A stretch of DNA of 25,592 bases from a virus. Its lineage: Duplodnaviria > Heunggongvirae > Uroviricota > Caudoviricetes. Both the position numbers and the translations under genes were made by a program. The stretch lies in the IMG/VR virus record IMGVR_UViG_2547132281_000002, positions 1 through 25,592 of that record, one strand, 5' to 3'. Below, piece after piece: positions 3,979 through 12,464 of the stretch (within the stretch, counting starts at the first letter, position 1; each line of letters opens with the position of its first letter). The notes under the pieces were generated by a model. It saw nothing but the letters and a program-made list of their open reading frames with translations. It was not told where the DNA came from and ran no database searches.

Positions 3979-4268
3979 ATCATAACGTCCGGTTTCTTCC
4001 GTGTCAGCACCGGGGCGTTGGCATAATGCAATACGTGTACGCGCTAAACCCTGTGTGCATCGTTTTTAATTATTCCCGGACACTCCCGCAGAGAAGTTCC
4101 CCGTCAGGGCTGTGGACATAGTTAATCCGGGAATACAATGACGATTCATCGCACCTGACATACATTAATAAATATTAACAATATGAAATTTCAACTCATT
4201 GTTTAGGGTTTGTTTAATTTTCTACACATACGATTCTGCGAACTTCAAAAAGCATCGGGAATAACACC

Positions 4269-4562
4269 ATGAAAAAAATGCTACTCGCTACTGCGCTGGC
4301 CCTGCTTATTACAGGATGTGCTCAACAGACGTTTACTGTTCAAAACAAACAGACAGCAGTAGCACCAAAGGAAACCATCACCCATCATTTCTTCGTTTCT
4401 GGAATTGGGCAGAAGAAAACTGTCGATGCAGCCAAAATTTGTGGCGGCGCAGAAAATGTTGTTAAAACAGAAACCCAGCAAACATTCGTAAATGGATTGC
4501 TCGGTTTTATTACTTTAGGCATTTATACTCCGCTGGAAGCGCGTGTGTATTGCTCAAAATAA
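4269..4562 (+). CDS. bor: Bor lipoprotein (serum-resistance lysogenic-conversion protein), 97 aa
   Basis: MKKMLLATALALLITGCAQQTFTVQNK... with lipobox LITGC, matching lambda Bor from memory. Sits opposite Rz as in lambda. Confidence 0.9.
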   Translation: MKKMLLATALALLITGCAQQTFTVQNKQTAVAPKETITHHFFVSGIGQKKTVDAAKICGGAENVVKTETQQTFVNGLLGFITLGIYTPLEARVYCSK

Positions 4563-9042: not shown

Positions 9043-9497
9043 TACGCCTCCTGCTTGTCGCGGAGCAGCTGGAACTCGCAGCTCTGCGGAATAGTCAGGT
9101 GGCAGCCAATATTCACCGCCCAGGCTTCAACCTTACACAGGAAGACATACATCTCTCCGGTATCAAGATCGGAGGTATGGCGTAACGACTGGATAGTGGT
9201 GATATCACCGGTTACGACATCAACCAGGTCTTTGGTTTCATAACCGAGATATGTGTGTTTGAGAGCATCTTTTACCCAAGCTGGAGTAGCGAACGTTTTA
9301 CCCCTGCTGATGAGGTATTCACTGATTTCGCTGTACCACATGTGGCTGAGTGCATTCTGGGAAAGACTGCGTTTCTCACGCCACGGTTTAAGCACCATGC
9401 GAAAGCATTTGCCCTCCTCCAGATAAGGCTGGATCTGCCGACCGATAGCGGTGAAGTTACCGCGATGTAATTTGATGCCATCTTGTGGGAGATTCAC
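9042..9497 (-). CDS. ybcN: NinB-family recombination protein (DLP12 YbcN-like), 151 aa
   Basis: [62 protein letters not shown]... matches YbcN from memory. Confidence 0.85.
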
Positions 9498-9684
9498 GCT
9501 TCACCTCCGCAGAGGTCAAACGCTGGATACAATATATCGCAGGTGCATTTCTGCATCTGTGGAGGGAGAAGAGAGTTTGGATTGTGTGTGCGCATAAACG
9601 TCCCCGTTTAGCGCAGAAGTCACCGGAGTTGTTCAGGCTCCGATGACATGATTATGGCGAGTTGATTATCGCAAATCAAAGGTT

Positions 9685-10041
9685 TTAATTGTGCTTTATT
9701 CCTTCAAGCGTTGCCTTCATACCAACCAAAGAAATGTTTAGCTCTCCAACTTTCTCAGGGCTATATAATTCAGAATGAAGCCAATATTCTGATTTATCTA
9801 AACATCTTTTAGCCAGCTCTCGATCAAAGTCTACGACTTGGGAAGACGCTTCATACCAAAGCCTATAAAGTTTTTCTTCTTCGTTTGGGTTATTAGGCTC
9901 ACCACGTTTTAATTTTTCAGTATATAAAATTGTTGAATAAATCGCAGGAGTTAATCCAGTGATTGCCCTCTGCCGCAGATCGGATTTGTTTGTTATCCAC
10001 CCCAACAGACGATCTCCCATCCATGTGATAATTGTATCCAT
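9685..10041 (-). CDS. Uncharacterised 118-aa protein, AT-rich cargo gene
   Basis: MDTIITWMGDRLLGWITNKSDLRQRAITGLTPAIYSTILYTEK.... An RBS-like AAGAAGGG lies 8 nt upstream. No family recognised; no predicted transmembrane segment. Confidence 0.55.
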   Translation of the reverse strand: MDTIITWMGDRLLGWITNKSDLRQRAITGLTPAIYSTILYTEKLKRGEPNNPNEEEKLYRLWYEASSQVVDFDRELAKRCLDKSEYWLHSELYSPEKVGELNISLVGMKATLEGIKHN

Positions 10042-10502
10042 GCTTTAGCCCTTCTTAGTAAATAGTGTGTAGGGCGACTGAAGGACCGAGTTTATGCTTT
10101 TTCGCATTGCTTTCAGTTAGTACACCGGTATCGCACCGGAAACAATCCTACGGCAAATTGGTTGTCTGACCTCTCGGTTTTTCGTGCATTAACCGATACC
10201 CACTACAGTCTCGGCGAAAGCTGCACACCCCCAGGGTGTACTGGTAGCACTCGGCACAGCCTAGCACGCCACTTTCTTCTCACTATCCAGTCTAATTTTA
10301 TCCCCTAGTCAGACACTCAGATGTAGTGCTCCGCAGCGGCATGCGGGGGAATACAAAAACTCGGACAAAATTGGGCCCTCCTTTTTGAATCACTCGCGGG
10401 GATGTAGTTATTAATACATGGAAAAAGATCTGTTTTCAAATCCAACATTATATGGTTTCAATACCACGGGGTGGCTATGTGTTTCTCATTGTTAATTGGA
10501 AT
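10042..10502 (-). other. ORF-free 460-bp segment between two same-strand genes; candidate long structured 5' leader or ncRNA
   Basis: No ORF of 60 codons or more in this interval in the supplied track, and only short ORFs found by manual reading. GC content is higher than in the flanking AT-rich genes. Several local hairpins (cacccUGGgggtg; ccggtGCGATaccgg; ucgguu...aaccga) and a sigma70-like promoter on the minus strand. Confidence 0.35.
10411..10439 (-). promoter_or_regulatory. Sigma70-like promoter (TTGAAA-N17-TATTAA) on the minus strand inside the ORF-free segment
   Basis: -35 TTGAAA at 10439-10434, 17-nt spacer, -10 TATTAA at 10416-10411. Predicted start near 10404, about 360 nt upstream of the 118-aa ORF. 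Confidence 0.3.
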
Positions 10503-10826
10503 CTACTGTAATCGATCCGAACGTAAATGCGGCAAAACTCGACTCCACTTATCATCCTGCCACGGCCGGAATTTTACATGTGCCGTTTCTCTGGCAAGGA
10601 TTGCCTGTGCCTTATTGAGTATCTGGGGATATTCTTGCTCGATAGAAGTGAAGCGACCAGCTTCACGATGCTCCGCAACCTGAAGAAGAGGAGTAACGTT
10701 CTGGTAGGTAATTAACATCACATTCCCTGCTCGCCATAACCAGGCGAGTGTGCAAAGTTCGTTATCAGTGAATTGTTTTGTGATTGGGTATTGTTGAACT
10801 GCTAGAACGAGAACGCCAGCATCCAT
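10503..10826 (-). CDS. Uncharacterised 107-aa protein
   Basis: MDAGVLVLAVQQYPITKQFTDNELCTLAWLWRAGNVMLITYQNVTPLLQVAEHREAGRFTSIEQEY.... No family recognised and the RBS is weak. Occupies the slot that holds ybcL/ybcM in DLP12. Confidence 0.45.
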   Translation of the reverse strand: MDAGVLVLAVQQYPITKQFTDNELCTLAWLWRAGNVMLITYQNVTPLLQVAEHREAGRFTSIEQEYPQILNKAQAILARETAHVKFRPWQDDKWSRVLPHLRSDRLQ

Positions 10827-10937
10827 TGGCAGTCTCTATAGTAAAACCATAGCTCAGGACGCTTCGTTCAGGATAGATAATTTTATTGTACTTACCTAAC
10901 TTTCTTACTATAGCACGGTTGAAAAAGTGATTATTAC

Positions 10938-12464
10938 TCAAAAATAAACCTCACCATCAACCATATATTTGAGAGTACTTATCGCCTGCTGGGCGGATAT
11001 TGTTTTCATTAAAGGATAGTGTTTAAAAACAATGCCATTCATAAAATAGATATCACAGGTTTTATTATCTGTATTGATTATGATTTTTTCGAATGTTTTA
11101 TAGGCAAGTGTACGACATAGCTCTCGCCCATTTTTACTGTTTAAGTCAATAGCATGAAAATCACCAAGTGAACTCACCGCTTTACTCTTCAAAGTTTTTA
11201 ATGATACAGAAGCCCTTCGTAATTCCTTATCTAATACTCTGATTTTTTCTGCTATAGCGGTAACTTCAGGCGCAACAGATAATGCAGCAATTAAATTATT
11301 AATTTTCATCTGGAGCTCAATAATTTTCAACTCTAAAGTTTCATTAGCATCTTTCTTGTTTTCAACTGGTTGGATTTTACTACAATTAAAAAGCAACTCA
11401 TTAATGATATTATAATCAACCAAATCTCTCTTTATTGATGGCCTGTCACATCGATGCAGTCTTCTCATCGGACAAACATAATAGCCATGCAAACTTCCAG
11501 ATACCGCATGAACAATCATGGTATTACCACAAGCCTCGCACTTCATAACTGTTCGAAGTAGATTTATCAACATAGGATTTTTGCTACTATTGCTAATACC
11601 AAAAGGTGCCAACCGAATTTCCTGTACAGCGTAAAACAAATCATCTGATATGACTCTGGGATAATAGCCAGCGATTTCACTTATTCCTTTACCTCTTGCA
11701 CGATATGAAGGTACGCATATACCTATCAGAGCTTTATTCGCTAATAATTTTTCAATTACAGAAGGTCCCCATGCACTTTCTTTTCCTGAGAAATTCTTTA
11801 CAGCATGATCATTTAAATACTTGGCTATTGCATTCAATGAGCGCCTTTCCATCCTGAGTTTAAAAATTAGCTCAATAGTTTTCACCCTGTCGGGGTCTGG
11901 AACAAAAGCCGTTCTTTTGTCATCTAAGGAGAGCCATCTCGGACAAGACGCCGTCATAATCGTACCTGATTCCAGTGCATCCTGCCGTTTTTTCTTCCAT
12001 GATAATTTAACCCGACTTGACTTTATCTCGCTTTCTTCATTTGCCCTTTGTGCTATAAGTATGGCTTTTATTAATGAATATGGCTCATTCAAAGAGTCAA
12101 TATTATAGACTGTATTGTCGCAAAGAGTTATAACATCAATACCGTGATTCAAAATCAATTTCAGACGTTCAATCGCTTCACCGACTTTTTCTCTTGAAAG
12201 TCTGTCCAGACTTTCAACTAACAATGTAGTTCCTGGCAATATATAACCATGCTCTATAGCATCTAAAAATTCCGAAAAAGCTCCTGATTGTGCATGCTTT
12301 CCTTTGAATGCACTTAATCCTAAATCTTCATATGTTATGGTATCAAGATAATAATCACTATTTACCTTTAACCATTCAGCAATAAGTCTTCTCTGTCGGT
12401 TTAATGAGTCGCCAGACATCTGACCTGGTGATGAAAATCGCATATATGCTATGGCTTTTTTCAT
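10938..12464 (-). CDS. ybcK: Large serine recombinase (DLP12 YbcK-like), 508 aa
   Basis: N-terminal resolvase-like MKKAIAYMRFSSPGQMSGDSLNRQRRLIAEW... with catalytic Ser in the YxRxSS context. Central recombinase region, a Cys-rich zinc-ribbon-like stretch (CEACGN...CPMRRLHRC) and a coiled-coil tail. Strongly AT-rich. Confidence 0.85.
   Translation of the reverse strand: MKKAIAYMRFSSPGQMSGDSLNRQRRLIAEWLKVNSDYYLDTITYEDLGLSAFKGKHAQSGAFSEFLDAIEHGYILPGTTLLVESLDRLSREKVGEAIERLKLILNHGIDVITLCDNTVYNIDSLNEPYSLIKAILIAQRANEESEIKSSRVKLSWKKKRQDALESGTIMTASCPRWLSLDDKRTAFVPDPDRVKTIELIFKLRMERRSLNAIAKYLNDHAVKNFSGKESAWGPSVIEKLLANKALIGICVPSYRARGKGISEIAGYYPRVISDDLFYAVQEIRLAPFGISNSSKNPMLINLLRTVMKCEACGNTMIVHAVSGSLHGYYVCPMRRLHRCDRPSIKRDLVDYNIINELLFNCSKIQPVENKKDANETLELKIIELQMKINNLIAALSVAPEVTAIAEKIRVLDKELRRASVSLKTLKSKAVSSLGDFHAIDLNSKNGRELCRTLAYKTFEKIIINTDNKTCDIYFMNGIVFKHYPLMKTISAQQAISTLKYMVDGEVYF

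Follow-up and report, generated by a model that had tools for sequence, protein, structure and literature searches.

What occupies 460 bp without a long open reading frame (ORF) between two genes on the same strand of the early-right operon of a lambdoid prophage? The segment in question, positions 10042-10502 (minus strand), lies in a window of 25,592 nucleotides (nt), which is the whole stretch of DNA analysed here (IMG/VR record IMGVR_UViG_2547132281_000002) and which is a DLP12-type lambdoid prophage or phage. A first-pass annotation, made from the letters of the window, had judged the length of the gap notable and had proposed a structured leader, an independent non-coding RNA (ncRNA) such as an RNA antitoxin, or a decayed gene. 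The length alone turned out to be statistically unremarkable, and it is conservation that carries the weight: comparison of the homologous copies demonstrates an RNA family with a defined strand and a predicted fold, which is non-coding, is exchanged as a module and persists without a working neighbour. On this sequence evidence, the family is real and previously undescribed, and its kind is that of a prophage-borne, stand-alone structured ncRNA.

Fold, covariation and strand

Variation among the homologues follows base pairing. RNAalifold yields a two-domain fold of 81 pairs, 11 of them compensatory. In a set of 27 distinct variants, for which the structure was lightly refined by hand, 97.8% of pair cells are standard and 15 of 89 pairs (114 cells) have changed on both sides. 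Controls consisted of the same structure with partners slid by 1-3 columns and of 500 shuffles. The covariation score of 0.206 compares with 0.04-0.055 for slid partners and was reached by none of the shuffles (0/500), and sliding leaves only 30-48% of cells paired, compared with 96-98% in the proposed structure. Among 21 variants that include those from Citrobacter, Obesumbacterium and Enterobacter, 22 of 88 pairs are compensatory, as against at most six when partners are slid. G-U pairs account for 10.7% of paired cells and therefore assign the RNA to the minus strand, on which pairing reaches 97.7% compared with 87.0% on the plus strand; the RNAalifold energy is -79.5 for the minus strand and -57.6 for its reverse complement. 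The alignments thus demonstrate that the minus strand of the segment encodes a structured RNA, for which two domains and about 16 helices are predicted. The earlier suggestion of a structured minus-strand RNA is strongly supported by the covariation and by the strand test, and the short perfect hairpins on which it drew are present (e.g., CCGGU-GCGAU-ACCGG and AUGC-GAAAAA-GCAU). Folding had been proposed as a check on it, and here the single-sequence energy was uninformative, whereas the alignment fold taken together with covariation was supportive.

The 5' domain is mostly invariant; its helix 66-74/83-90 (alignment columns) shows G-U/A-U/G-C exchanges and one compensatory pair. In the 3' domain, compensatory changes occur in helices 128-133/183-188, 138-139/155-156, 165-170/174-179, 189-197/204-212 and 260-269/275-283. 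The two domains would be joined by a long-range, pseudoknot-type helix between the invariant sequences GUCUGAC and GUCAGAC, which is supported by the Citrobacter variant (L123): there, U-A replaces C-G at pair 96:234 and G-U replaces G-C at pair 90:240, and competing local pairs are broken. An 11-nt inverted repeat (10086-10096 and 10354-10364) was considered as an alternative long-range pairing and rejected, being broken in variants L052 and L053. As a separate observation, the invariant self-complementary GCAUGC and the GUCUGAC/GUCAGAC pair make pairing between molecules conceivable, which we record only as a lead.

Extent and distribution of the RNA family

The alignment consists of invariant runs of 10-48 nt interleaved with variable runs, and homology ends sharply on both sides. 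The RNA occurs in 159 of 5,426 complete Escherichia coli genomes (~3%), with one copy in each and no annotated feature over it in any (RefSeq). It is found in four of 50,697 phage records, namely Turner, IdasGreatGrand and two Klebsiella phages, whose copies (including that of Kp4856-1) stand at 78% identity, the lowest in the family being ~78%. Approximately 64 IMG/VR contigs and 25 metagenome contigs carry it, as do assemblies of Obesumbacterium proteus, Enterobacter bugandensis and Citrobacter braakii. Four additional pattern scans of IMG/VR recovered these ~64 loci again, together with one chance match (L122). It is absent from closely related DLP12-type prophages. A scan of contigs from species-representative genomes gave chance matches only, because the representatives lack the element, and the RNA was not found in the plasmid collection. 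One copy (98.5% identity) lies at 36028-36360 of NZ_CP174001.1 (E. coli SZQ1, 43,337 bp), a record classed as a plasmid that may in fact represent a phage-plasmid or the circular genome of a phage.

Searches against described RNAs agree with the earlier remark that the segment could not be matched to an RNA family. Rfam 15 (4,227 models), applied to the whole window at the gathering threshold, yielded nothing in the segment, and at E <= 10 over 9500-11000 it yielded nothing inside 10042-10502. Five diverged loci (gathering threshold) and L123 (E <= 10) gave only weak terminator-like Rfam matches 3' of the core. ARAGORN found no transfer RNA (tRNA) or transfer-messenger RNA, and keyword and conserved-block searches of a literature library found no description of the RNA. 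Elsewhere in the relatives, Rfam reports STnc100 in Klebsiella phage Kp4856-1 (L002; 156-351, minus strand) and, directly after the Q gene of the Citrobacter prophage, isrJ and a tRNA (L123; 5287-5437).

Predicted promoter and terminator

The promoter-like element claimed for the minus strand, TTGAAA-N17-TATTAA, can be read from the sequence there. At least ten diverged relatives keep TTGAAA, TTGAAT, TTGTAT or TTGATA together with TTTAAT or TTAAAT at a distance of 17 nt, across a spacer whose sequence varies freely; in the window the spacing is 17 or 18 nt, depending on whether TATTAA or ATTAAT is chosen as the -10 register. These conserved hexamers at fixed spacing place the predicted start at the A of AUCCCC (window 10403), so that the first-pass guess of a start near 10404 coincides with the start predicted here (10403/10404). 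In L099 (5553-6807), and also in L067, a 1,255-bp element of the IS3 family with OrfA/OrfB transposase frames sits in the -10 region, at the equivalent of window ~10411-10415. The RNA 3' of this insertion retains 99.7% identity, and the insertion can therefore be viewed as a natural knock-out or replacement of the promoter.

In 21 of the 89 tabulated copies, representing five of the seven downstream arrangements described below, a GC-rich hairpin and a U-tract follow the last conserved helix after 7-10 nt. A terminator scan confirms an intrinsic terminator in L063 (9451-9468), and the terminator sequence differs between clades. The same kind of scan finds no terminator-like site in the window spacer (10042-10072), which aligns as a gap against the terminator-bearing variants. 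The terminator has thus been lost in the window lineage, and the RNA is as a result fused to the 118-amino-acid (aa) gene, of which it is physically the 5' leader.

Cargo genes and modular exchange

Counted over the 89 tabulated copies, the sequence downstream of the RNA falls into seven arrangements. The 118-aa family follows in 62 copies, without a terminator; a 178-aa protein with hydrophobic ends (two predicted transmembrane segments) follows in 12, a 176-183-aa protein with an RHNLLH (Rx4H) motif in seven and a 95-aa protein in five, and there are two singletons. The remaining copy (L053) has no cargo, its terminator being followed by the core nin gene DUF1367. Upstream genes vary too: the window has an antirepressor remnant, and several other loci have a dATP/dGTP pyrophosphohydrolase. 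None of the cargo proteins has a match in PADLOC, Pfam or NCBIfam. In the metagenome contig L101, a 177-aa ORF beginning MKNIIIDSNAWNFLFD lies 3' of the RNA with no terminator between them; it has no Pfam match, and its N-terminus is reminiscent of PIN-like nucleases.

The association between RNA and cargo is not strict. For both the 118-aa and the 176-aa families, closer homologues (67-79% identity) have the RNA upstream, which is missing from homologues at 51% identity. The RNA of the L010/L031 lineage differs from that of the window at three of 332 positions, two of these changes being neutral within pairs, whereas the 118-aa ORF of that lineage has accumulated ~18 substitutions and lost 3 nt within its first 190 nt, after which a deletion of 137 nt reduces it to a 66-aa stub. 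Stubs of this type are common (clusters P0017-P0019), P0017 comprising 51 member sequences compared with 125 for the intact protein.

Base composition sets the segment apart as the first-pass annotation had stated, with a G+C content of 0.50-0.535 over 10100-10399 compared with 0.385-0.41 in the 118-aa gene and 0.41-0.48 upstream, and a content differing from that of the flanks is as expected for a horizontally acquired cassette. Of the other marks of a moron, i.e., an accessory cassette, we found predicted promoter hexamers, terminators in relatives and a patchy presence; in the window the terminator is absent.

Genomic setting

The early-right operon of the window runs on the minus strand from the replication genes O/P through a ren-like gene, emrE, the ybcK recombinase gene and a 107-aa antirepressor remnant, and after the 460-bp gap continues with the 118-aa ORF, ybcN/ninB, ninE, ybcO, rusA and Q (Table 1). 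The stretch tested for identity (9600-10900) is 100% identical to E. coli KSC207, and the segment itself is 100% identical to Escherichia phage Turner. The sequence immediately 3' of the 118-aa gene is common to more than 2,600 E. coli genomes and the antirepressor remnant to ~1,600, whereas the gap sequence is present in only the 159 genomes noted above; the place taken by the gap and the 118-aa gene is therefore a cargo hotspot, at which K-12 and other E. coli strains have different genes. In E. coli 2009C_3612 (L003; 3000-3716), a HEPN-domain gene and a hypothetical gene fill the same hotspot; the 300-nt non-coding gap 5' of this HEPN gene was examined as a candidate relative of the RNA and discarded as unrelated sequence. 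The homologue of the 107-aa ORF in that strain has 202 aa, and the 107-aa ORF is probably a truncated remnant at the recombination boundary of the hotspot. The only match in the window at the Rfam gathering score is IS009 (RF02111), which scores 229.5 bits at 160-358 of the minus strand and is covered there over the entire length of the model.

Table 1 Features of the RNA locus and its neighbours, in window coordinates
Feature	Position	Strand	Description
Conserved core of the structured ncRNA	10073..10403	minus	331 nt; 5' AUCCCCGCGAG ... CCUUCAGUCGCC 3'; about 100 homologous copies
5' domain (columns 1-104)	10300..10403	minus	Predicted closing helix AUCCCC/GGGGAU and two hairpin arms (RNAalifold, pair counts)
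3' domain (columns 112-328)	10076..10292	minus	Predicted closing helix GAYUGG/CCAGUC and multi-branch set of covarying hairpins
GUCUGAC, 5' strand of the putative long-range (pseudoknot) helix	10308..10314	minus	Perfect complement of GUCAGAC at 10164-10170
GUCAGAC, 3' strand of the putative long-range helix	10164..10170	minus	Within invariant block GAGAGGUCAGACAACCAA
-35-like hexamer	10434..10439	minus	TTGAAA; read from sequence, predicted
-10-like element	10410..10416	minus	TATTAA (10416-10411) or ATTAAT (10415-10410); aligns with TTTAAT/TTAAAT in relatives
Spacer, RNA core to ATG of the 118-aa gene	10042..10072	minus	AAGAAGGG ribosome-binding site; position of the terminator in many relatives
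118-aa cargo gene	9685..10041	minus	Predicted four-helix bundle, generic; follows the RNA without a terminator in the window lineage
Upstream neighbour (context)	10503..10826	minus	107 aa; only the P22 antirepressor C-terminal domain (Pfam PF10548, E = 1.1e-15)

A proposed autonomous RNA module

On balance, we lean towards the view that the locus is an autonomous accessory cassette (moron) of promoter, RNA and, usually, terminator, in which the RNA acts via its fold. An independent module is favoured because relatives possess terminators, because seven arrangements are found downstream, and because an intact RNA stands beside a decayed 118-aa ORF. Such a cassette would travel among the lambdoid prophages of Enterobacterales (E. 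coli, Klebsiella, Enterobacter, Citrobacter and Obesumbacterium). It would be transcribed from its own sigma-70-type promoter with a start at ~10403/10404, plausibly in the lysogen as is the case for other morons, and lytic growth would add read-through transcription from the early-right operon. The RNA may act by virtue of its fold in three dimensions and of the sequences that are invariant in its loops and junctions, and not by pairing with a target: elsewhere in the 25.6-kb window, only two 12-mers and six 11-mers are complementary to it, about as many as expected by chance. One of these stretches, at window 9187-9198 (minus-strand transcript, in ybcN/ninB), is perfectly complementary over 12 nt to GACUGGAUAGUG (columns 112-123); approximately one such 12-mer is expected by chance. 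Most plausibly, although here we go by conjecture, the RNA would bind a protein or assemble with itself. The hotspot context and the patchy distribution suggest an accessory function in phage-phage or phage-host conflict, e.g., interference with or protection from other phages. Under this reading the RNA would not be a ligand-sensing leader for one particular gene, and in the window lineage the same RNA would form the 5' part of the 118-aa gene transcript after loss of the terminator.

Several observations weigh against autonomy. The largest subfamily (62 of ~89 copies) has no terminator, its 118-aa gene beginning ~30 nt after the core (31 nt in the window), and this terminator-less layout is kept in at least three genera (Escherichia, Obesumbacterium and Enterobacter). 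Within it the RNA (80-83%) and the ORF (74-76% nucleotide identity) have diverged to a similar degree, as a dedicated leader would show. Where a terminator is present, the cargo begins ~25-50 nt after it, too close to accommodate a promoter of its own, and cargo expression thus probably depends on read-through from the promoter of the RNA. Other points concern the RNA and its signals. The single-sequence folding energy is ordinary (z = -1.26 for the minus and -0.44 for the plus strand). The family is shallow (identity at least ~78%) and comprises few clades, so that the compensatory changes in different cells are not independent of one another, and some of the helices (several) are invariant throughout. 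The -10 element is imperfect, with no A at -11 in the register common to the relatives, and a strict consensus promoter scan omits the TTGAAA-N17-TATTAA element because position 6 of the second hexamer is not a T. We infer the promoter and the start site from the sequence, and the 3' end of the RNA from the terminators of its relatives.

Alternative functions of the RNA

Some of these points would be accommodated by a cis-regulatory leader, similar to a riboswitch or an attenuator, whose fold senses a ligand, a protein or a condition and controls read-through of the terminator or translation of the cargo. We regard this as possible but unlikely. The order of promoter, structured RNA, terminator and an ORF at 25-50 nt with no cargo promoter is the classical layout of an attenuator, and adjacency of RNA and ORF in the 118-aa subfamily, conserved across genera, fits a leader as well. 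However, the downstream genes are mutually unrelated, none is annotated, they share no common function, and one copy has no cargo at all. The terminator lies outside the conserved core, separated from the last helix (CCAGUC) by an A-rich linker of 7-10 nt, and varies in sequence. No convincing conserved and mutually exclusive anti-terminator emerged: the only alternatives to be drawn, GUCGCC:GGCGGU or GCC:GGC, are weak, although RNAalifold does suggest the weak GCC...GGC pairing, which might reach the ribosome-binding region. Decay of the 118-aa ORF has left the RNA intact; with its 331 nt and a putative pseudoknot, the RNA greatly exceeds most riboswitches in size, and none of the cis-regulatory families of Rfam matches it. 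The first-pass proposal of a leader for the 118-aa gene therefore holds in the physical sense, for the window, where a cis effect is possible, while the overall evidence favours an independent module.

A more far-reaching possibility, and one that we think rather improbable, is that prophages possess a new type of accessory system with this RNA as its constant core, the RNA being either an infection-sensing gate with swappable effectors or a self-assembling, RNA-only particle. In the first version, the promoter and a leaky terminator would feed interchangeable effectors (Rx4H proteins, proteins with two transmembrane segments, helical bundles) and the structure would respond to infection; if true, this would be an RNA-only analogue of the conserved-sensor and swappable-effector logic of retrons and CBASS. 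In the second, assembly would proceed via invariant complementary loops as in GOLLD and ROOL, and, if true, the RNA would be the first of this sort in E. coli, where it is genetically tractable.

It is improbable that the RNA is a dedicated partner of toxic or defence effectors, restraining the variable downstream proteins (an Rx4H protein, proteins with two transmembrane segments, small helical proteins) either as a type III-like antitoxin or as an infection sensor in an RNA-gated abortive-infection cassette. The layout of promoter, RNA, terminator and protein is that of type III toxin-antitoxin loci, but the RNA contains no tandem or direct repeats (Tandem Repeats Finder, 0 rows; repeat finder, none). 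The downstream proteins do look effector-like, with the RHNLLH (Rx4H) motif in the 176-183-aa family and predicted membrane-spanning ends in others; yet specific neutralisation of unrelated proteins by one RNA is implausible, no cargo is matched by PADLOC, Pfam or NCBIfam, and the 118-aa protein is a generic four-helix bundle. The position in a cargo hotspot that harbours a HEPN-domain gene in other E. coli would fit such a role, whereas the two partners prove separable: both tested cargo families have members that lack the RNA, and some copies of the RNA stand beside a decayed ORF or have no cargo at all. The idea of an RNA antitoxin put forward at first is thus unsupported, given the absence of repeats, the varying partners and the occurrence of the partner proteins without the RNA.

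We find it very doubtful that the segment serves as a cis element of the early-right transcript or of the DNA, for instance in processing or stability, as a tR2-like terminator, in the timing of antitermination between nin and Q, or as a protein-binding DNA site. The terminators of the nin region of lambda are located between the replication genes and Q. With the replication genes before it and ninB/ybcN-Q after it, the segment has this same position on the early-right strand, where a terminator would halt unmodified polymerases before Q. However, presence in only ~3% of E. coli genomes and in four of 50,697 phage records, together with the absence from closely related DLP12-type prophages, identifies it as accessory and not as part of the core circuit; covariation involving G-U pairs reflects selection on RNA pairing and not on duplex DNA; and the conserved promoter hexamers argue for independent transcription.

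Coding potential

The earlier description of the segment as ORF-free is borne out, since between the 107-aa and 118-aa ORFs both strands contain only ORFs of 31-48 aa, none of which is conserved in the relatives. The 135 variable columns are distributed over the codon positions as 47/41/47, no frame is open across all variants, and six-frame fragments have no match in Pfam or PHROGs. The record of phage Turner (L001, PP925837) lists two coding sequences (CDSs) for hypothetical proteins of 39 and 43 aa, at 4107-4226 and 4276-4407. They correspond to window 10148-10267 and 10317-10448, inside the RNA and its promoter, and neither frame is conserved in the relatives; by this comparison they are almost certainly artefacts of gene calling. 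A 108-aa ORF on the opposite strand is present in one relative (E. coli 3426) and has no Pfam or PHROG match. An invariant, exposed and Shine-Dalgarno-like GGAGG stands 8 nt 5' of a UUG that opens a 19-codon frame (~10368 to ~10309, minus strand; columns 23-95) ending at a UGA within GUCUGAC. This frame is open in every variant; its variable sites are spread 5/5/4 over the codon positions and track their base-pair partners, and it is probably not translated. For all that the Turner CDSs, the opposite-strand ORF and the GGAGG with its always-open frame might suggest, a decayed protein gene or a gene for a small protein, including the 19-codon UUG ORF and the two Turner CDSs, has next to no likelihood, and decay as first considered is rejected, given the lack of codon periodicity in the segment and in the 19-codon frame, of any conserved frame between variants and of matches to Pfam or PHROGs.

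Relation to known RNAs

Large bacterial RNAs with complex folds are rare, and new biochemistry has come from them repeatedly. Few genetic systems are annotated as well as E. coli and its lambdoid prophages, yet this RNA has gone unannotated in ~3% of complete E. coli genomes, and also in at least one isolated phage, Escherichia phage Turner, where it was miscalled as two tiny CDSs. Most orphan large RNAs (GOLLD, ROOL, OLE, raiA) belong to hosts that are hard to manipulate. The RNA described here comes with an inducible prophage, a plaque-forming phage and the E. coli toolbox, which makes its function directly testable, and natural variants are at hand in which the terminator is present or absent, an IS3 element is inserted in the promoter, or the neighbouring genes have decayed. 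It also marks a hotspot between the replication and nin genes where small proteins of unassigned function are swapped behind a common RNA, a situation relevant to the organisation and expression of accessory or defence genes in prophages.

With leaders of the riboswitch and attenuator type the RNA shares its place between a predicted promoter and an intrinsic terminator with an ORF at once after, and in the window it is a 5' leader; it differs in having no common downstream function, no overlap of fold and terminator and no Rfam family, and in persisting without a functional ORF. In ToxIN, promoter, RNA, terminator and protein follow one another, and the antitoxin consists of tandem direct repeats processed by the toxin, a cognate endoribonuclease to which the RNA is obligately paired. 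ToxI-type antitoxins and the ncRNA-associated HEPN toxins resemble the locus in the sequence of promoter, RNA, terminator and small protein, in the cargo or defence hotspot and in the one Rx4H partner, whereas our RNA lacks tandem repeats, has a single complex predicted fold, and is found with unrelated partners from which it is separable.

The ncRNAs DicF and IpeX belong to cryptic prophages of E. coli, and prophage moron elements of this sort are expressed in lysogens. STnc6030 of the Salmonella prophage BTP1 is an ncRNA of superinfection exclusion (bioRxiv 10.1101/787010). Like these three, the RNA is encoded by a patchily distributed ncRNA gene in a lambdoid prophage, has its own (here predicted) promoter and is dispensable for the phage; the difference is that it is not antisense to any gene and shows only chance-level complementarity to the window, and its covarying stems and invariant junctions point to a role that would depend on the fold. 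GOLLD and ROOL are large, ornate bacterial RNAs that are often found in prophages (PMC5737381; PMC12286853); ROOL measures 581 nt (PMC5737381) and GOLLD is longer still. The RNA resembles them as a stand-alone, large, multi-junction RNA with predicted long-range pairing of the pseudoknot type, encoded by a prophage accessory gene and found by comparative sequence analysis, and, as in their case, it has no known protein partner or function. It differs in giving no cmscan match to them even at E <= 10, in its length of ~330 nt, in its occurrence in lambdoid prophages of Enterobacterales and not in the lineages described for those RNAs, and in having no adjoining tRNA genes; the likeness concerns the predicted fold, and oligomerisation of our RNA would be only a possibility. 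Membership in any of these families is denied because the homology tests fail; by analogy, the RNA would work most like GOLLD and ROOL and like prophage ncRNA morons such as STnc6030.

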